Assembly (NCBI RefSeq): GCF_965641715.1
Contig: NZ_OZ282453.1
Origin: Escherichia coli
GTDB taxonomy: Bacteria > Pseudomonadota > Gammaproteobacteria > Enterobacterales > Enterobacteriaceae
Length of the DNA: 64,000 nt
Reading direction: 5' to 3' (one strand)
Both the position numbers and the translations under genes were made by a program. The notes beneath the pieces are model-generated. The model was given only the letters and a program-made list of their open reading frames with translations, ran no database searches and was not told the origin of the DNA. Positions 1,960-49,476 of this stretch are shown here, piece after piece. Each line of letters opens with the position of its first letter. Within the stretch, counting starts at the first letter, position 1.

Positions 1960-1992
1960 TACCTCTCTGGCGGTAGATCCCTGCCGCCAAAA

Positions 1993-2006
1993 TTGCGCTA
2001 AATCAA
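1993..2006 (+). promoter_or_regulatory. putative FNR half-site pair TTGCG-N4-ATCAA upstream of hcp
   Basis: ttgcgctaaatcaa resembles the FNR consensus TTGAT-N4-ATCAA; hcp is a known FNR-activated gene; about 100 bp upstream of the hcp ATG. Confidence 0.35.
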
Positions 2007-2064
2007 TCTCCCTTAAAGTTGCATGAAAAATCCCTTTTATCCCCGCGTTAAGCGTCTTAACCTT

Positions 2065-2088
2065 AAACATGTATATTAAATATAACTT
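2065..2088 (+). promoter_or_regulatory. putative NsrR-like AT-rich site in the hcp leader (one good half-site AACATGTATAT)
   Basis: aaacatgtatattaaatataactt; left half resembles the NsrR half-site AAnATGcATnT, right half is weaker; hcp-hcr is NsrR-repressed in E. coli. Confidence 0.25.
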
Positions 2089-2102
2089 TAAAAGGTGTGA
2101 TC

Positions 2103-3755
2103 ATGTTTTGTGTGCAATGTGAACAAACTATCCGTACTCCGGCAGGAAACGGCTGCTCATACGCGCAGGGGATGTGTGGTAAAACGGCGGAAACCTCTGA
2201 CCTTCAGGATTTACTCATCGCGGCGCTGCAAGGGCTTTCTGCCTGGGCGGTAAAAGCGCGTGAATACGGCATCATCAACCACGATGTCGACAGCTTCGCG
2301 CCACGCGCCTTTTTCTCAACCCTGACCAACGTTAACTTCGATTCTCCGCGTATTGTCGGCTACGCTCGTGAAGCGATTGCCTTGCGCGAGGCGCTGAAAG
2401 CACAATGCCTGGCTGTAGATGCCAACGCCCGCGTCGATAACCCGATGGCTGACCTGCAACTGGTGAGCGACGATCTCGGCGAACTGCAACGTCAGGCAGC
2501 AGAATTTACCCCTAACAAAGATAAAGCGGCGATTGGCGAAAACATTCTCGGCCTGCGTCTGCTGTGCCTGTATGGCCTGAAAGGTGCGGCGGCCTATATG
2601 GAACACGCACACGTTCTCGGTCAATACGACAACGATATTTATGCCCAGTATCATAAAATCATGGCGTGGCTGGGGACCTGGCCTGCCGATATGAACGCGC
2701 TTCTTGAGTGTTCAATGGAAATCGGCCAGATGAACTTCAAAGTGATGAGCATTCTGGATGCAGGCGAAACCGGTAAATACGGTCACCCGACGCCAACCCA
2801 GGTCAACGTCAAAGCGACGGCGGGTAAATGCATCCTGATTTCCGGTCACGATCTCAAAGATCTCTACAACCTGCTGGAACAGACCGAAGGCACGGGCGTT
2901 AATGTCTACACCCACGGCGAAATGCTGCCTGCGCATGGCTACCCGGAGCTGCGTAAATTCAAGCATCTGGTCGGTAACTACGGCAGCGGCTGGCAGAATC
3001 AGCAAGTGGAGTTCGCTCGTTTCCCTGGCCCCATCGTGATGACCTCGAACTGCATCATCGACCCAACCGTAGGCGCTTATGACGATCGTATCTGGACCCG
3101 CAGCATCGTTGGCTGGCCTGGCGTGCGTCATCTGGATGGCGAAGATTTCTCTGCGGTCATTGCCCAGGCGCAACAAATGGCAGGCTTCCCATACAGCGAA
3201 ATTCCGCACCTGATCACCGTGGGCTTTGGCCGCCAGACGCTGCTTGGCGCAGCGGATACGCTAATTGATCTGGTGAGCCGTGAAAAACTGCGTCATATCT
3301 TCCTGCTTGGTGGCTGTGACGGCGCACGCGGCGAACGTCACTACTTCACCGATTTCGCCACCAGCGTGCCGGATGACTGCCTGATCCTGACCCTCGCCTG
3401 TGGTAAATATCGCTTTAACAAACTTGAGTTTGGCGATATCGAAGGTCTGCCGCGTCTGGTAGATGCAGGTCAATGTAACGATGCTTACTCAGCGATTATT
3501 CTGGCGGTAACGCTGGCAGAAAAACTGGGCTGCGGTGTCAACGATCTGCCGCTGTCGCTGGTGCTCTCCTGGTTTGAACAGAAAGCGATTGTCATTCTGC
3601 TGACGCTGCTTTCTCTGGGCGTGAAAAATATCGTCACCGGCCCGACTGCACCTGGTTTCCTGACACCAGATCTGCTGGCGGTGCTGAACGAGAAATTCGG
3701 CCTGCGTTCTATCACCACTGTTGAAGAAGACATGAAGCAACTGTTGAGCGCGTAA
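2103..3755 (+). CDS. hcp: hybrid-cluster protein (hydroxylamine reductase), 550 aa
   Basis: ORF track 2097..3755 trimmed to ATG 2103 (MFCVQCEQT...); N-terminal Cys cluster CxxC...C...C; matches E. coli Hcp. Confidence 0.95.
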
Positions 3756-3766
3756 GGAGTTTGTCG

Positions 3767-4735
3767 ATGACGATGCCAACGAATCAATGCCCGTGGCGGA
3801 TGCAGGTTCATCACATTAAGCAAGAAACGCCGGATGTGTGGACGATTTCCCTGATTTGCCACGATTACTACCCATATCGCGCCGGGCAATATGCACTGGT
3901 CAGCGTGCGAAACTCAGCGGAAACGCTGCGTGCTTACACTATTTCCTCCACGCCAGGAGTGAGTGAATATATCACCCTGACCGTGCGGCGGATTGATGAC
4001 GGTGTCGGCTCCCAGTGGCTGACGCGCGATGTAAAACGCGGTGATTATCTCTGGCTTTCGGACGCGATGGGGGAATTTACCTGCGACGATAAAGCAGAAG
4101 ATAAATTCCTGTTGCTGGCTGCAGGCTGCGGCGTCACGCCGATTATGTCGATGCGTCGCTGGCTGGCGAAGAATCGTCCACAGGCCGATGTACAGGTGAT
4201 CTACAACGTGCGTACGCCGCAGGATGTTATTTTCGCCGATGAGTGGCGTAACTATCCGGTAACGCTGGTGGCGGAAAATAACGTTACCGAAGGCTTTATC
4301 ACTGGTCGTCTCACTCGCGAACTCCTGACTCGCGTTCCTGACTTAGCTTCACGTACCGTGATGACCTGCGGCCCGGCTCCGTATATGGATTGGGTAGAGC
4401 AGGAAGTGAAAGCGCTCGGCGTGACGCGTTTCTTTAAAGAGAAATTCTTCACCCCAGTAGCGGAAGCGGCGACCAGCGGTCTGAAATTCACCAAACTGCA
4501 ACCGGCGCAAGAATTTTACGCTCCTGTTGGCACCACGCTGCTGGAGGCGCTGGAAAGCAATAAAGTTCCGGTTGTCGCCGCCTGCCGCGCGGGTGTTTGC
4601 GGCTGCTGTAAGACGAAAGTGGTTTCCGGTGAATATACGGTGAGCAGTACAATGACGCTGACCGACGCCGAAATCGCTGAAGGTTACGTACTGGCCTGCT
4701 CCTGCCATCCGCAGGGGGATTTGGTTCTCGCATAA
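3767..4735 (+). CDS. hcr: NADH oxidoreductase for Hcp (FAD/NAD binding plus C-terminal 2Fe-2S ferredoxin domain), 322 aa
   Basis: ORF track 3761..4735 (TTG) trimmed to ATG 3767 (MTMPTNQCPW...); C-terminal CRAGVCGCCKTKV cysteine motif; 11 bp after the hcp stop, operon arrangement. Confidence 0.95.
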   Translation: MTMPTNQCPWRMQVHHIKQETPDVWTISLICHDYYPYRAGQYALVSVRNSAETLRAYTISSTPGVSEYITLTVRRIDDGVGSQWLTRDVKRGDYLWLSDAMGEFTCDDKAEDKFLLLAAGCGVTPIMSMRRWLAKNRPQADVQVIYNVRTPQDVIFADEWRNYPVTLVAENNVTEGFITGRLTRELLTRVPDLASRTVMTCGPAPYMDWVEQEVKALGVTRFFKEKFFTPVAEAATSGLKFTKLQPAQEFYAPVGTTLLEALESNKVPVVAACRAGVCGCCKTKVVSGEYTVSSTMTLTDAEIAEGYVLACSCHPQGDLVLA

Positions 4736-11324: not shown

Positions 11325-11534
11325 GATCGATCTCCTTGTTTGTTAAGCCTTCGATCTCTAAAGCATTATCGGACTGATATGCCATGTTGGGAAGAAGGTT
11401 TTGATCAGTTTAGGAAATCATCTCATTGTGTCAAAAACAGCTACATAAGCCTGTACAATTATCTGTTTCGTAACCGGATATTGGTTTCATTATGGAGCAC
11501 CGCTTACCTGCCCTATTATGTTGTGCCGGCAACA

Positions 11535-21477: not shown

Positions 21478-21798
21478 TTATTGATTAATTAAATGCGGAA
21501 AATGTTGCTGAACCACTTCATAAATTTGCTGACCAATAGTTTCACCGTCCATAATATTCTCTATCGGAATCAAATATTGCCCTTGTTTCGGGTCAAGACT
21601 AACCACATCGAGTAATTTTTTGGAAATAGCAAAAATATCCGCCCAGTCGGTAAATCCGCCGACTTCACCTGCGGCGGTATGTTCCATTTCAACTTTGAAA
21701 TCATATTTGGTCAGCGCTTTTTTAACGACCGTTTGTAACATAACGCTACTGCCTACACCGTAACCACAGACAAACAGAATATTAATTGTATCTTTCAT
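21478..21798 (-). CDS. PTS EIIB component, L-ascorbate (UlaB/SgaB) family, 106 aa
   Basis: N-terminal ILFVCGYGVGSS phosphocysteine loop typical of Asc-family IIB; 21 bp downstream of the IIC gene. Confidence 0.85.
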   Translation of the reverse strand: MKDTINILFVCGYGVGSSVMLQTVVKKALTKYDFKVEMEHTAAGEVGGFTDWADIFAISKKLLDVVSLDPKQGQYLIPIENIMDGETIGQQIYEVVQQHFPHLINQ

Positions 21799-21819
21799 TT
21801 TTAAACCCTTAATATTTAA

Positions 21820-23163
21820 TTAACCCGCGTAAGGACCAAGATGGAATGTTGCAGCGATAAATTTCAGAACTTCACAAATAGCAGGCCATACGGTTGCCCA
21901 GTCAAATATTCCTGTCCAGCCGACGCCATTTTCAGCAAGCCCGGTTAACGGAATAGCCCACACCGTACCGAAGGTCTGAATAATACCCAGCAAGAACGTA
22001 CAGATAATTACGGAACGGTATCCGCCCATGCGGTTTGCTAATACGCCAATTGGACCGCCAGAGAAAAACAGAGGTACAAAGCCAGGCAATACCATAATTG
22101 GGCTGTGAACCAGTAATAAGATCCCCATCGAAAAAATGGTGCCAAAAGTACAGAAGACGAAGCCTAACGTTGCGGCATTGGGTGAAAAAGGCAACAGCGC
22201 GGCGACATCGACGGCGGGAATGGCATTAGGAATAAAGCGATCCTGCCAGCCTTTAAACGAACCGTTAATTTCGCCCACCATCATGCGCACACCCTGCAGC
22301 AAAATGACCATATACATGGAGAACTGTAAGCCAAGGTTGATGATATAGATGTACCAGGGCTTGCCTTTCGCCATTAACTGGACATTATCGATACCCGTTG
22401 ATAGCAAGAAACCACCGACAAACAGCGTCATCACAATGGCGATAGCCGTTACGTTATGGTTAAAAATCGCCAGCCACCCGGGGAGTTTCAGGTTTTCAGC
22501 ATCGTGCTTTTCGGGGTCACCAAATTTATGGGCGAATTTGGAGAAAAACCACAATCCCAACATCTGGTTATGAGCAATGGTAAAACCGGCATCTTTGGTA
22601 ACTTTGGCAATGGGCTTAACAATGAGCGTGGTGGAGAACGCCCAGAATACACCCGTTAATATTCCGGCAATAATAATGGATGTAGTCCAGCTAAAACCCA
22701 GCCAAAAGACAATCAACCATAATACCGCCTGAGAATGTGAAACACCGGTATTCCCTGTCAAAAATATCCCTTTGGCACCAGTATACCGACCAAATAATAC
22801 CAGCAGCAGGTTGGTAAAAAACGCCAGTACAAATACATAACCGACATAACCAAAATTATCCCCCAACGCAATTTGCGTTGCCGCTTTCATTGCGTAGGAA
22901 TCCATTAAATATCCGTGAACACCATAGGCTTTACTTACGGCTTCTGCTACCGGTTTAAATGTTGCGGAAAACTGGAAACCACCAAATAACACCATCATTA
23001 ATCCCACCATGGCGCTGACCATGCCGGTAATAATTTTTATTGGCGATTTCTTATCAAGGGCATAACCAATACCCACCAGCAAACCAATTAAAATTGCCGG
23101 TTCAGTTAAAAACGTTTGAATAACATCTATGAATTTGGCAAACATCGTCGGAACGCCCTCCAT
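21820..23163 (-). CDS. PTS EIIC permease, L-ascorbate (UlaA/SgaT) family, 447 aa
   Basis: Polytopic membrane protein sharing UlaA-like motifs (FKPV, NLKLPGWL, GVRMMV, LPGFVPLFFS); first gene of the IIC-IIB-sulfatase operon. Confidence 0.85.
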   Translation of the reverse strand: MEGVPTMFAKFIDVIQTFLTEPAILIGLLVGIGYALDKKSPIKIITGMVSAMVGLMMVLFGGFQFSATFKPVAEAVSKAYGVHGYLMDSYAMKAATQIALGDNFGYVGYVFVLAFFTNLLLVLFGRYTGAKGIFLTGNTGVSHSQAVLWLIVFWLGFSWTTSIIIAGILTGVFWAFSTTLIVKPIAKVTKDAGFTIAHNQMLGLWFFSKFAHKFGDPEKHDAENLKLPGWLAIFNHNVTAIAIVMTLFVGGFLLSTGIDNVQLMAKGKPWYIYIINLGLQFSMYMVILLQGVRMMVGEINGSFKGWQDRFIPNAIPAVDVAALLPFSPNAATLGFVFCTFGTIFSMGILLLVHSPIMVLPGFVPLFFSGGPIGVLANRMGGYRSVIICTFLLGIIQTFGTVWAIPLTGLAENGVGWTGIFDWATVWPAICEVLKFIAATFHLGPYAG

Positions 23164-23353
23164 AAGCGTACATTTCCGTTGTCAATGCATGAACCTTCTG
23201 CTGACGTTAATAATGTCTCAGGAAATTTTGTGTTTCGCTAAGCAATGCCTCTGTATGTATTCGGTAAGTGCACTGTAGTAATCAAAACAGTTCAATTAAA
23301 GATCTTATTTGATTATTTGTGATTTGATTTGCAAAAATAGAGCAATATATAAC

Positions 23354-23389
23354 CGTGATCGATCGGTTATTATTAATCGATCGATCACG
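23354..23389. promoter_or_regulatory. GATC-dense inverted repeat upstream of the PTS IIC gene; candidate operator or Dam-sensitive regulatory site
   Basis: cgtgatcgatcgg-ttattattaa-tcgatcgatcacg: 13-bp arms matching 12/13 around a 10-bp AT spacer; four GATC sites within about 30 bp. Confidence 0.4.
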
Positions 23390-23442
23390 ATTATTATTTT
23401 GAGTGAATAGTTGTTGCCGAAAAATTTACTGCCGTGATGTAT

Positions 23443-24570
23443 TTAAATTTTTACCAGCAGCGTCAGCACTTCATAGTGCGCGGTGTGCGGGAACATATCA
23501 AAAAGCTGTACCCGTTCAATGCGATAACCAGGCAGTTCTCGGATATCTTTTGCCATGGTTTGGGCGTTACAGCTGGAGTAGATGATAAAACGCGGTGCCA
23601 TCGTTGAGAGATAATCACACAGCGGTTTACCAATGCCGCGGCGCGGCGGGTTAACCAGCACCAGCTCCGGCACCTCCCCCTGAGCGGTGGCAAACTGAGT
23701 GGAGTCCAGCGCCTGAAATTGCAAACGCGTTAAGCCCAGTTCAGCGGCTGACTGCTTTGCACAGGCAATGGCCTCTGGCGCAATTTCGATCCCGGTTAAC
23801 TGCATGTCAGGCGTCGCGCAGTGTAAACCAAAGCCCCCCACACCGCAGAACAGATCCCACATATGTTTAACCGGCAGCTGTCGTACCCAGTCGCGCGCGG
23901 TGGCGTACAGCTGGCTGGCGACCGCCGGATTAGTCTGGAAGAAACTTTGCGGACGGACCCACAGCGGCACATCGTTAAAACGCTCCGCCAGTGCCTGTTG
24001 TTCGGTTAGGTAGATCTCCGTCTCCCCTTCCATAATCGCCATATGTACCGGCTGAATATTGACGGTAATAACTTTTAGCTGCGGTAGTTGTTCCTGTAAC
24101 CACGGTAGCGCCTTACGCAGTTGCGCCAGCTTGGTATCAGAACGCAGTACAAAGCGCAGCATCATGCCGCCATCGCTCTGGCTTTCGGTCAGCAGAATGT
24201 ATTTCAGTTCGCCACGCTTACGCGCCACGTTGTAGGGCGTTAACCCCGCTCGGGCGATAAACGGTTTTAGCGCCGCAAAAACGGGCGCAAATGAGGCAGG
24301 ATAAAGCGGGCAGTCACAAAGGTCTTCCGGTGTGCCGTCTCGATGCAGCATACCGAGCAGTGGTTTTTCAACGCTACCACTCACCACCATTTTGGCTTTA
24401 TTACGAAACCCTTGTTCCGGGCCTGACACCGGCGCGCACCATTCCTCAACCGGAAAGTCGGCGAGCAGATTTTTAAGATCGGCGGTTTTAGCGGAGAGTT
24501 GCTCTGGAATCGGCTGCGTTATCCACTGACAGGAACGACAGCGACCCGCGTCGTAAAGTGCGCACTGCAT
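23443..24570 (-). CDS. rlmC: 23S rRNA (uracil747-C5)-methyltransferase RlmC (RumB), 375 aa
   Basis: ORF track; N-terminal Cys cluster [14 protein letters not shown] and SAM-methyltransferase C-terminus; matches E. coli RlmC. Confidence 0.95.
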
Positions 24571-35030: not shown

Positions 35031-35109
35031 GCCACTGCTTTTCTTTGATGTCCCCATTTTGTGGAGCCCATCAACCCCGCCATTTCGGTTCAAGGTTGGT
35101 GGGTTTTTT
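35031..35109 (+). ncRNA. rybB: RybB small RNA (sigma-E-dependent, Hfq-binding), 79 nt
   Basis: gccactgcttttctttgatgtccccattttgtggagcccatcaaccccgccatttcggttcaaggttggtgggtttttt matches the known RybB sequence, including the terminator hairpin and U-tract; sigma-E-like -35 GAACTT and -10 TCTTA upstream; lies 76 bp after ybjL as in K-12. Confidence 0.9.
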
Positions 35110-35286
35110 GTTATCTAAATCCCCAAAATCTCCATTCTCTCCCCTGTCCAAAGCCTTATCTGACTGTCCTCTCTTCCAGAAAATCATTCTTTTTCGTACA
35201 AAGAACAAATAGTTATTGAGAAGCTTATTTAAAAACCTGAACAAAATCGGTAATATTCCTGGCTTTGCAATACACAGACTTTTTAT

Positions 35287-35838
35287 ATGGATATTAACGA
35301 GCTAAAAGAGTGCCTTCATCTGGAAGTCATTGGTAAAAGTAGGAAATTCACATGGCGTAAAGTCATTGTAAGGGCGATGAAACATCGGCGCGTTCGTTAC
35401 TTATTCTGGTGGCGTATCGCTAAATACGGCCATGAGAAAGGTGGTTACTGGCGGAAAATTGCTGGCAAAATTGAGCGAAAAATCCTTGATAGTTATGACG
35501 TTAAAATCCCATTAGTCGTTGATATAGGCAAAGGGTTGGATATTTCATACTTAACGGGAGTTGTTATCGGTCATAACGTAAAAATTGGTGAGAATTGTTC
35601 CATCAAACCCGGCGTAACCATCGGCCTACGTGGCCATTTTGACGAAATGGATATACAGATTGGCAACAATGTCACCATTGGTTGCAACGCCTCCATTCTG
35701 GGCGGCAAAGTCTATATTGGAGATAACGTCACGATAGGTGCACATGCATTGGTTTTGCATGATATCCCAGAAAACTCCATTTTTATCAATAAAATAGAAT
35801 ACGAGATTATCCCGAAAAAAGTTATAGCCGAAATGTGA
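35287..35838 (+). CDS. hexapeptide-repeat acetyltransferase, serine-acetyltransferase-like (CysE/WcaB family), 183 aa; not part of the K-12 backbone
   Basis: Tandem hexapeptide repeats (VVIGHNVKIGENCSIKPGVTIG ... IQIGNNVTIGCNASILGGKVYIGDNVTIGAHALV) and an SAT-like N-terminal region; no obvious SD; sits in lower-GC DNA between rybB and rcdA. Confidence 0.7.
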   Translation: MDINELKECLHLEVIGKSRKFTWRKVIVRAMKHRRVRYLFWWRIAKYGHEKGGYWRKIAGKIERKILDSYDVKIPLVVDIGKGLDISYLTGVVIGHNVKIGENCSIKPGVTIGLRGHFDEMDIQIGNNVTIGCNASILGGKVYIGDNVTIGAHALVLHDIPENSIFINKIEYEIIPKKVIAEM

Positions 35839-35897
35839 TCGCCAGTGAGATGATTAGCGCTATCGAGGGAGGTGTTGCGTCTTATCGACCTCTGTAG

Positions 35898-47147: not shown

Positions 47148-47331
47148 TTAATCTAAAGGCAGATCTAACAAGGATATTGTTCTTCGATCTGCCTCTACTA
47201 CCCTTCCCGATGTCCTACCCTTACGCACAAAATCCCCTGACGCATAAATCGAGAAAAATGAATCGTACTCGAGGCAACTCTCACTTTTTCACACCAAATT
47301 AAAGTTTTGATCGCAATTACTTGAAATAAGC

Positions 47332-47357
47332 GTAATGGTTACTATAGTAAACATTAC
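47332..47357. promoter_or_regulatory. near-perfect 26-bp palindrome (GTAATGGTTACTA|TAGTAAACATTAC) upstream of the toxin gene; probable autoregulatory operator overlapping a -10-like TATAGT
   Basis: 12 of 13 arm positions are self-complementary; ends 15 bp before the toxin ATG. Confidence 0.5.
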
Positions 47358-47372
47358 CACAAGGATGGATGT

Positions 47373-47759
47373 ATGGGTGTGTATAAGGCAAGGCGATTCA
47401 GCCAAAGCACGAAAAAACTTGGTATTCACGATAAAGTTCTCATGGCTGCCGCTGAAGAAGTGATGCAAGGCATATGGGAAGCTGATTTAGGTAGCGGTGT
47501 CATCAAAAAACGGTTACCCCTCCAACAAGGAAAGAGTGGTGGAGCCAGAACAATTATCTTTTTTAAATCAGCAAATCATGTGTTTTTTTATGATGGTTGG
47601 TCCAAGAGTGGTCTAAGCAGTAAAGGAAGCAAAGAAATCGAAGATGATGAACTGGCAGCCTACAAAAAAATGGCAAATGCATTTCTGGCCTTTAGCAATA
47701 AGCAAATAGAGGATTTGATCGAAACTGGCTTCTTGATTGAGGTGAAAAATGAGCGATAA
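47373..47759 (+). CDS. type II toxin, HigB-2-like (RelE/ParE superfamily), 128 aa; not part of the K-12 backbone
   Basis: Motif GKSGGARTIIFF resembles the GGxRxIYYF core of HigB-2-type toxins; toxin-first order with an 11-nt overlap onto an XRE-HTH gene; AAGGA SD. Confidence 0.75.
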   Translation: MGVYKARRFSQSTKKLGIHDKVLMAAAEEVMQGIWEADLGSGVIKKRLPLQQGKSGGARTIIFFKSANHVFFYDGWSKSGLSSKGSKEIEDDELAAYKKMANAFLAFSNKQIEDLIETGFLIEVKNER

Positions 47760-48078
47760 ATTACAAATGATGCTGGAAGATGCAAAGGAACTGAATGCAC
47801 TGGGCCTGATGTCTGATAGTGAGGTTGATGCCATTGCCGTCATGGTCAAAGCCCGTGAAGTCAGCGCCCGTATAGCCAAAGTCAAATCAATGACGGGTGA
47901 AGAGATCAAAGCCATCCGCACCCGATACGGCATGTCACAATCCGTGCTGGCACATACAATGGGAATGTCAAAAGAAAGTGTCTCGAAATGGGAACGTAAT
48001 GAAATAAAACCGAGCGGCCCGGCACTACGTATTTTGAATACATTGGCAATAAAAGGGCCGGAAGTTTTTGCAAAGTAA
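47749..48078 (+). CDS. antitoxin, HigA-2/NadS-like XRE-family HTH protein, 109 aa
   Basis: C-terminal HTH (IRTRYGMSQSVLAHTMGMSKESVSKWERNEIKPSGPALRILN) typical of COG2944-type antitoxins; translationally coupled to the upstream toxin; GAGGTG SD. Confidence 0.75.
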   Translation: MSDKLQMMLEDAKELNALGLMSDSEVDAIAVMVKAREVSARIAKVKSMTGEEIKAIRTRYGMSQSVLAHTMGMSKESVSKWERNEIKPSGPALRILNTLAIKGPEVFAK

Positions 48079-48107
48079 AATGTTTGCAAATGATTTACCA
48101 CATTCAT

Positions 48108-48133
48108 TAGTACCCCTTGATTCAGGGGTACTA
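48108..48133. terminator. hairpin between the convergent antitoxin and dgcI 3' ends (stem tagtacccc / ggggtacta)
   Basis: 9-bp perfect stem, 8-nt loop, moderately T-rich flank; candidate bidirectional terminator. Confidence 0.45.
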
Positions 48134-48147
48134 ACACTATTCTAATT

Positions 48148-49476
48148 CTACTGCCAGCTAATCTGTGCCCTGCCGTTTTTCTTACTCTTATACAGCCGCT
48201 CATCCGCCAGCATTTTCAAGCGTTCGACGGTAGTACATTCATTTGAATGCGCTACACCGATACTGGTACTTAAATTAATGCTTCCCACCTGGAAATGAAC
48301 GATTTCTTTTAGAATCGATAGTAACTCTTCCAGCGTGCCGCCAGTATAAATCACCGCAAATTCGTCACCGCCGAAGCGGTAGACTTTACCTTTATCTACC
48401 GGGATCTGTGATTTAAGGATTTTCACCACTTTCATCAACACTTCATCGCCCAGCAAATGACCGAAGGTGTCGTTAATATTTTTGAATTTATCGACGTCAA
48501 ACAGGCACAAATAACCGCCTTTTTCCGGCAGCGCTTTTAAATCTTCGTCAAAGGATTTTCTGCCCATTGCTTTGGTCAGGTCGTCCAGGAACGCCGAGTT
48601 ATACATACTGTAGAGTTTTTTGACATCGGCAGCCGAAAAGAAAAGCCCGCCATCCAGTACGCGTTCAAAATGGTTATTAATAATGGCTTCTTTCTCCACA
48701 ATACCACGATTAATCACTCTGCGTACCAGATAGAGGCAACTGGTACCCGATATCACTGCCACCAATGCGGCAAAGAAAATAATCAATGTACAAACCCGCA
48801 AATAAACATCTTTTTTATACGCAAATACGTACAATCCGGTCGGCAAATAGGCGAAGTGCTCCATCGCTTCCGAAACGGTGAAGATGGCGTTTTTAGCATT
48901 ATATTCATCACCGGTCACCGGTTTACCGTTCTTAAACAGAGAGAACATCAGGTTCTCGCTGTCCATCGCCAGCGATTTTGACAGTAAAGAAAAACGCTCC
49001 AGACCAAGCAAAAATATCAGACTACGATTGTGAGTTACCGGATAGAGGTAATAGACGAAGGTTTTACCGTCAAAAGAGATAAACCCTGTATTTTTGACAT
49101 GTCGATACTTCACAACCTGCATAATATCTGCACAATAATTTTTCTCGAACTCCTTTACCTGAATACATTCGTCACTGGAAATCAGATAAGGACCGACATC
49201 GTACAAATAAGAGGGTGAAACCGAGTCGGCGTAAGCTGTGCGCAAGCCAACCAACAGCTGTTCCTCCGTGGGATTTAGCGTGTTGATAAGATCAATTGCC
49301 ACGCTACGACGATATTCAGCAATATTTGCCACCGCAAAAGCAGTATCAATAACGGACTGTTTCAGGCTATACACCCGTTCCTTTACCATTTGAGTGTAGA
49401 TCCCGCAGGCAACTGCTGAAATCATGATAAAAATCAGCAGACTGACTGTAAGTACGAACTTATTGATTCTGGACAT
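48148..49476 (-). CDS. dgcI: diguanylate cyclase DgcI (YliF), GGDEF domain, 442 aa
   Basis: ORF track; GGDEF motif RFGGDEF in the C-terminal domain; matches E. coli YliF. Confidence 0.9.

Follow-up and report, generated by a model that had tools for sequence, protein, structure and literature searches.

The 143-bp spacer between lysO and hcp, at positions 1960-2102 of the 64,000-nucleotide stretch of Escherichia coli DNA analysed here (hereafter the window), is the regulatory region of the NO-defence operon hcp-hcr and works as described for K-12, a reading to which we give a probability of about 95%. Control of hcp-hcr by FNR and NsrR is already known and the main finding contains no new element; both boxes were predicted by comparative genomics, through alignment of the DNA ahead of hcp from eight enterobacteria (Rodionov et al. 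2005). The first-pass annotation, which had placed an FNR-like and an NsrR-like site ahead of hcp and had set them down as expected biology, judged the situation correctly, the hcp promoter being already well studied.

The window begins inside aqpZ, which is followed by lysO, hcp, hcr and poxB. The upstream neighbour lysO (ybjE), named by RefSeq as an L-lysine exporter, occupies 1060-1959 on the plus strand according to the open reading frame (ORF) list and the RefSeq annotation of identical DNA, and ends with the TAA stop codon at 1957-1959 (ORF list). The hcp gene, encoding the hybrid cluster protein of 550 amino acids, extends from its ATG at 2103 to 3755 on the same strand (ORF list and RefSeq annotation of the same DNA), and hcr, the NADH oxidoreductase gene and second gene of the operon, lies at 3767-4735, also on the plus strand (ORF list and K-12 annotation). 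Alignment with the characterised K-12 hcp promoter, to which the first-pass annotation had pointed, is identical at 143 of 143 bp (100%; MG1655, NC_000913.3, 913815-913957, reverse strand). Because the spacer is the K-12 hcp promoter base for base, the published K-12 data are directly applicable to it. The window as a whole differs from K-12, with 95.7-99.1% identity and four extra segments. This spacer separates lysO from hcp in 5424 of the 5426 complete E. coli genomes.

We scored the window with an NsrR weight matrix built from 17 half-sites of Mehta et al. 2015 (Table 2), the hcp sites being left out. Over both strands of the window, the highest-scoring 11-1-11 match is the inverted repeat AACATGTATAT-T-AAATATAACTT at 2066-2088 (site I), which has 20.1 bits (10.4 and 9.7 bits for its half-sites) and would extend from about -6 to +17 relative to the transcript start. 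A score this high is expected 0.02 times per 64 kb, and 2000 random 143-nt leaders matched in composition gave no instance of it. Since it ranks first against so low an expectation, site I is significant by sequence on its own, unlike the FNR box described below. The AT-rich palindrome aaacatgtatattaaatataac, called earlier at 2065-2086, does exist, but the call began 1 nt before the proper unit at 2066-2088 and stopped 2 nt short of its end.

Site I coincides with published occupancy. Mehta et al. 2015 found, in the hcp-ybjE intergenic region of strain CFT073, an NsrR ChIP-seq peak of 12-fold enrichment; its summit, 22 bp ahead of the hcp ATG, corresponds to window position 2081 and falls inside 2066-2088. 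The half-sites that they list, AACATGTATAT at 27 bp and AAGTTATATTT at 15 bp from the ATG, map exactly to 2066-2076 and 2078-2088, and the CFT073 sequence of site I is that of the window. What had been described as an NsrR-like site is an 11-1-11 operator, ranked first in the window and with the CFT073 summit inside it. Expression data point the same way: hcp is up 43.7-fold under nitrate in the CFT073 triple (3X) mutant (Mehta et al. 2015), hcp mRNA is 284-fold higher in a Salmonella nsrR mutant, and a fusion of the hcp promoter to lacZ (Phcp::lacZ, plasmid pNF383) is a standard NsrR/NO reporter. As cited by Mehta et al. 2015, hcp is also in the K-12 NsrR ChIP-chip of Partridge 2009. In E. 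coli, a 39-mer around the site is exactly conserved in 5149 of the 5426 complete genomes, and the one strain with a change in the NsrR core, T2072C, has its site moved towards the consensus.

The second element, TTGCG-N4-ATCAA, was found at 1993-2006, exactly where it had been reported. This FNR binding site, TTGCGCTAAATCAA, is centred at 1999.5 and reads TTGCG-CTAA-ATCAA; it keeps TTG and ATCAA and departs from the consensus TTGAT-N4-ATCAA at positions 4-5 only. Using a leave-one-out weight matrix trained on ChIP-bound sites from Table S6 of Myers et al. 2013 (62 sites, hcp left out), we obtained a score of 13.3 bits, the second highest in the 64-kb window; the sole better match, at 61233-61246, is the published ybiY/fsaA FNR site. 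The FNR training sites span 11.8 to 21.2 bits and 11% of them score below the hcp box; for FNR and NsrR alike, the matrix scores lie within what bound sites reach. On sequence evidence by itself, a box such as this FNR site is no rarer than random expectation, with 1.36 equal-scoring sites expected per 64 kb of random sequence, and matches to the consensus with 2 mismatches number 49 in the window against 35.8 +/- 5.8 in shuffles. Its significance comes only from its placement inside the 143-bp spacer, where the expectation for such a score is about 0.003, together with its conservation and the published occupancy. A CRP site was considered for the same bases and rejected, the half-sites starting with TTG/CAA, which is FNR-type, and not with GTG/CAC.

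Myers et al. 2013 list this exact box, on the reverse strand as TTGATTTAGCGCAA, with a PatSer score of 13.11 and an ln p of -11.6, which passes their threshold of -10.75. They observed an FNR ChIP-seq peak over it, gave its position as -72.5 (their Table 1), and classed hcp-hcr as FNR-activated; their supplementary expression data give ratios of 0.43/0.40 for hcp/hcr. The FNR-like site of the first-pass annotation is thus the published K-12 FNR site. Occupancy of both sites in vivo, the FNR position and NsrR-dependent repression have all been shown in the literature. Among the 5426 complete E. coli genomes, 5319 have an exact copy of a 32-mer around the box, and the handful of E. coli polymorphisms, seen in divergent strains, all fall outside the FNR box.

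We then compared hcp promoters across species. Species-representative genomes were scanned with a degenerate coding pattern of the Hcp N-terminus, yielding 120 loci, 115 of them with enough upstream DNA, and 110 distinct hcp promoters were retrieved; 86 distinct Enterobacterales promoters were compared. In every Enterobacterales genome retrieved, the top-scoring FNR match is 100-111 bp away from the ATG, and in nearly all of them the top-scoring NsrR match is 24-33 bp away from it. Site I is located at -24 to -33 from the ATG in 86 of the 86 distinct Enterobacterales promoters, with a minimum score of 16.8 bits and a median of 21.8 bits; no site I operator was found in the hcp promoters of Aeromonas or Shewanella. 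In a 21-genus alignment, the FNR and NsrR boxes stand out as conserved islands from divergent intervening DNA. Their spacing is also kept: of the 86 distinct promoters, 52 have the two centres 77.5 bp apart and 81 have them 76.5-79.5 bp apart, and 77.5 bp is the spacing predicted by FNR at -72.5 and NsrR at +6. The form of the FNR box found here, TTGCGCTAAATCAA, is the commonest one (56 of the 110 distinct promoters retrieved). Across the Enterobacterales its left half-site is never the consensus TTGAT, and Aeromonas boxes have a perfect TTGAT. The conservation of a non-consensus left half suggests, from these alignments, selection for a weak site.

If the centre of the FNR box, 1999.5, is set to the published -72.5, the transcript start (+1) is predicted on the plus strand at 2072, to within +/-1 nt. 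With this start, the operon would have a 31-nt 5' untranslated region and the NsrR operator would be centred at about +6, over the start itself, so that the positions of the two sites fit the published promoter geometry. Neither of the refuting outcomes named in the first-pass annotation, low motif scores or misplaced sites, was thus observed. The first-pass annotation had located both sites in the hcp leader. Only the NsrR operator reaches into the 31-nt leader; the FNR box is upstream promoter DNA, and the wording was loose in that the FNR box and the 7-2-7 site described below both precede the transcript start. A candidate -10 hexamer, TAACCT, is present at 2058-2063 on the plus strand, 8 nt upstream of the predicted start; its T1, A2 and T6 are kept across the genera aligned, and Yersinia, Serratia and Pectobacterium have TATGCT in its place. 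A Shine-Dalgarno sequence, AAGGTG, can be read at 2092-2097 on the plus strand, 5 nt before the start codon, and is conserved as AAGG or AAAGG in the alignment. A simple consensus scan of 1800-2300 yielded no sigma-70 consensus promoter, as expected of an activator-dependent promoter, for which such a scan is uninformative.

The spacer contains three elements that are absent from the first-pass annotation, i.e. a 7-2-7 site at 1960-1975, a hairpin at 1969-1988 and a further NsrR-like motif at 2016-2038. The first, TACCTCT-CT-GGCGGTA, is a pair of inverted heptamers of NarL/NarP type that directly follows the lysO stop codon. Against TACYYMT-NN-AKRRGTA, its left heptamer is perfect and the right one has 2 mismatches. 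Eight matches of equal quality were counted in the window, against 2.9 expected, and 4 of 100 shuffles reached 8, making the match weak by itself. In the Enterobacteriaceae the site is conserved as TACYYCT-NN-GGCGGTA, and the TAC...GTA ends are kept. Its centre, 1967.5, would correspond to -104.5 if +1 is 2072, in agreement with the position reportedly assigned to NarL/NarP in Filenko 2007 and Chismon 2010. MotifAdjuster places a 7-2-7' NarL arrangement upstream of hcp; its supplements give no coordinates for the hcp heptamers.

The hairpin, GGCGGTAG-ATCC-CTGCCGCC, occupies 1969-1988 on the plus strand and starts 10 nt past the lysO stop codon. As RNA it folds with -17.5 kcal/mol (z = -5.0), all 8 of its pairs are kept in 45 distinct sequences, its loops are free in sequence and in length (4-6 nt), and its U-G wobbles pair only on the plus strand. 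Strong support from covariation was considered for it, and the support proved only modest, 98.1% of cells being paired and a single pair showing changes on both sides. It is probably a lysO 3'-end or terminator-like hairpin. A canonical intrinsic terminator at these positions was rejected, as the strong stem is followed by AAAAUUGCG, with no U-tract, and a terminator scan of 1800-2300 was negative. The Aeromonas counterparts of the hairpin do carry a T-run. An Rfam scan of the region returned no family at gathering score, its sole match being a sub-threshold TwoAYGGAY in the aqpZ-lysO spacer. The left arm of the hairpin is also the right NarL/NarP heptamer, and the two are not separable. Because this heptamer is a hairpin arm and only 4 bp separate the hairpin from the FNR box, transcription or termination of lysO and activation of hcp could interact.

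The mechanism, as already described for K-12, is the following. During anaerobiosis, [4Fe-4S]-FNR binds TTGCGCTAAATCAA, an imperfect box with its centre at -72.5, and from this class I position would recruit RNA polymerase, through an inferred contact, to a promoter with poor core elements. NarL or NarP, activated by nitrate or nitrite, would bind the 7-2-7 site at about -104.5 and boost FNR-dependent transcription. [Fe-S]-NsrR, sitting on the 11-1-11 repeat at about -6 to +17, would block initiation, and NO would damage the NsrR cluster, take NsrR off the DNA and so derepress the operon. The combination of FNR activation and NsrR repression confines the synthesis of hcp-hcr to conditions without oxygen and with NO, the latter arising from nitrate or nitrite respiration. 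Anaerobic and nitrosative-stress control of hcp-hcr, as claimed by the first-pass annotation, is supported by the published occupancy, activation class and derepression.

An extension of this explanation, which adds to it and does not replace it, concerns the third of the additional elements, AAGTTGCATGA-A-AAATCCCTTTT at 2016-2038 (site II). This putative NsrR-like 11-1-11 motif would lie downstream of the FNR box and ahead of the -10 region, at about -56 to -34. NsrR could act through two operators, the start-site operator at 2066-2088 and an auxiliary one at 2016-2038, near -45 and before the -35 region, that would also block the contact between FNR and RNA polymerase; we regard this as possible, though we would bet against it. 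Site II scores 15.6 bits, the third-best 11-1-11 match in the window, and its left half, AAGTTGCATTA in CFT073, is the third possible NsrR site listed for hcp by Mehta et al. 2015, whose label for it, (11), does not fit the actual distance of 77 bp. A motif of at least 15 bits, always 9 nt beyond the FNR box, occurs in 21 of the 86 distinct Enterobacterales promoters, in scattered genera and far over a background with a 99th percentile of 0.0 bits, and it outscores site I in six Enterobacterales genomes. It is missing in most genera, however, with a median score of 1.4 bits; half-sites of its score are not rare (76 observed, 77 expected); and the only two E. coli polymorphisms seen in this segment fall inside it. 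The conserved right half, CCTTTT, may be just a -35-region or UP-like sequence. The single published ChIP-seq summit is on site I, 54 bp from site II, a distance at which two sites are beyond its resolution. The strengths of sites I and II show a weak inverse relation (rho = -0.24, p = 0.03, not corrected for phylogeny), and compensation of one by the other was, for these reasons, not relied on. Site II may be an auxiliary operator gained and lost among the Enterobacterales, or merely -35-region sequence. A wider reading would join such an auxiliary operator to an activator site fused with the lysO hairpin and to selection of a weak FNR half-site, the order-wide TTGCG that is never TTGAT, which would reflect co-dependence on NarL/NarP; taken jointly, these proposals are unlikely to hold.

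Two other readings set aside the roles of FNR or NsrR altogether or in part. OxyR reportedly controls or influences hcp, and the palindrome or the non-consensus FNR half could mainly be the target of this or another factor, such as a nucleoid protein or sigma-E. The constraint on the FNR box exceeds the need of FNR contacts alone, the left half never being TTGAT in the Enterobacterales and the N4 spacer CTAA being conserved as well, with exactly TTGCGCTAAATCAA in 56 of the 110 promoters; the weak half-site is equally explicable by selection for NarL/NarP co-dependence. Myers et al. 2013 noted the absence of a sigma-70 ChIP peak at hcp and labelled a sigma-E site there. We found no sigma-E-like -35/-10 pair at hcp by eye, and the main text of Rhodius 2006, cited for the sigma-E site, contains neither hcp nor ybjW nor b0873. 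The table of Myers et al. 2013 also gives no overlap with Fis, H-NS or IHF at the hcp site, and published ChIP-seq demonstrates FNR and NsrR occupancy directly. We therefore consider another main factor very improbable. That both motifs resemble operators only by chance, the spacer being AT-rich, and play no regulatory role might be argued from the 49 2-mismatch FNR matches in the window (36 expected), from the about 1.4 sites of equal FNR matrix score expected per 64 kb, and from the 3 mismatches that separate each NsrR half-site from AAGATGCATTT. This reading is already refuted, by occupancy and by conservation: ChIP-seq peaks of both FNR and NsrR have been published on these exact bases, the 11-1-11 site ranks first where 0.02 are expected, and the boxes and their spacing are kept from Escherichia to Pectobacterium and Yersinia when the DNA between them is not. 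FNR activation with NsrR repression, as in K-12, accounts for the spacer.

The discovery value of the region is small, since it represents textbook control of an NO-stress operon, predicted in 2005 and confirmed by ChIP and reporter work. Its value is that of a positive control, in which real operator sites were recognisable from raw sequence. It also provides a calibrated example, with a true FNR site that is indistinguishable from chance by sequence alone and a true NsrR site that is distinguishable. The 77.5-bp spacing and the order-wide sub-optimal FNR half-site illustrate constraint on promoter architecture.

Comparison with known systems places the spacer closest to the K-12 hcp-hcr promoter (Filenko et al. 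2005, 2007; Chismon et al. 2010; RegulonDB), to which it is identical over its whole length and with which it shares the flanking genes lysO and hcp-hcr, the FNR box at -72.5 and the NsrR half-sites; the promoter itself has no differences, and only the surrounding DNA differs. With class I FNR promoters, in which the dimer is near -61.5, -71.5 or further upstream (ackA at -74.5 and ydjX at -60.5 in Table 1 of Myers et al. 2013), it has in common an upstream-centred dyad with TTG/CAA intact, a weak core promoter and anaerobic activation. It departs from them in its left half, TTGCG instead of TTGAT and conserved as such throughout the Enterobacterales, in its probable co-dependence on NarL/NarP further upstream, and in a start-site repressor that overrides activation. 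Promoters of the nrfA, nirB, napF and yeaR type likewise combine an FNR box with a NarL/NarP 7-2-7 pair for nitrate or nitrite induction, but in hcp the putative pair is upstream of FNR, at about -104.5, and neither between FNR and the promoter nor over a repressor site; it overlaps the hairpin after lysO. The NsrR operators of ytfE and hmp, with AAGATGCATTT half-sites, share with hcp the inverted repeat with a 1-bp centre, a location, predicted for hcp, over the core promoter and start, binding in ChIP-seq and derepression by NO or nitrate. The hcp half-sites are degenerate, with 3 mismatches each to AAGATGCATTT and PatSer scores of 8.8 and 9.2 against 10.9 for ytfE, and site I is more AT-rich in E. 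coli (ATGTAT/ATATAA) than in Yersinia or Pectobacterium (AAGCAT/ATGCAA).

Between the FNR box (1993-2006) and the -35 region of the hcp promoter, i.e. upstream of the NsrR operator (2066-2088), sits a second NsrR-like motif of the 11-1-11 type (2016-2038), which ranks third among the 11-1-11 matches in the window. At a fixed offset, the motif was found in 21 of the 86 Enterobacterales hcp promoters, and within E. coli it is polymorphic at two positions (G/T at 2025 and C/T at 2033).

On the other side of the FNR box, a GC-rich hairpin, GGCGGTAG-ATCC-CTGCCGCC (1969-1988), begins 10 nt past the lysO stop codon. RNA folding yielded -17.5 kcal/mol with z = -5, and the hairpin is not followed by a U-tract. 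All 8 of its 8 pairs are retained across 45 distinct Enterobacteriaceae sequences; covariation is modest. In the NarL/NarP 7-2-7 site (1960-1975), the right heptamer is this hairpin's left arm, and the FNR box begins 4 bp past the hairpin's end.

The hcp promoter of the E. coli O169:H41 strain 2014EL-1345-2 (locus L122) was observed to carry an insertion of IS421 (IS4-like), occupying positions 3145-4552 of that locus. The breakpoint, at about window position 2043, falls downstream of the FNR box but ahead of the NsrR operator, and therefore the activator sites of this strain are cut off from the core promoter. A sigma-E attribution has been made for hcp (window 1993-2102) by Myers et al. (2013), and hcp is not named in the main text of the paper they cite for it. 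The same FNR ChIP-seq study bears on another part of the window: the highest-scoring FNR weight-matrix match of the whole stretch, TTGACGCACATCAA (61233-61246, 16.3 bits), is the ChIP-bound ybiY/fsaA FNR site published in its Table S6.

In the spacer between aqpZ and lysO, a segment of about 275 bp (646-920) matches K-12 MG1655 in inverted orientation (K-12 915008-915283) at only 90.6% identity; its flanks are 97-98% identical to K-12. The segment contains perfect inverted repeats and belongs to a repeat family that lacks annotation and is found in E. coli genomes at a median of 3 copies each, ranging up to 8. A TwoAYGGAY RNA match within it (663-825) is sub-threshold, at 24.7 bits versus a gathering score of 43. 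Overall, the segment appears to be a small element, mobile or exchangeable. Elsewhere in the window, an Rfam match above the gathering score places naRNA4 (nucleoid-associated ncRNA 4/CssrE, a REP325-type element) at 17596-17676 on the minus strand.

Four further segments distinguish the window from K-12. The largest, 4.9 kb between artJ and rlmC (18593-23452) and missing from K-12, encodes on the minus strand a PTS EIIC-GAT permease (21820-23163), a PTS IIB protein (21478-21798) and an IS4-family DDE transposase (20033-21151), the last of which interrupts a sulfatase gene and splits it into two pieces (21158-21466 and 18636-19832). Also missing from K-12 are 2.6 kb between ybjQ and ybjP (11386-13942), where a 600-aa pentapeptide-repeat protein is encoded on the minus strand (11535-13337). 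Compared with K-12, the window additionally carries a 1.0-kb insertion between rimO and dgcI (47153-48148) and a 0.8-kb insertion (35120-35897) immediately past the 3' end of rybB, the gene of the RybB sRNA (35034-35112).
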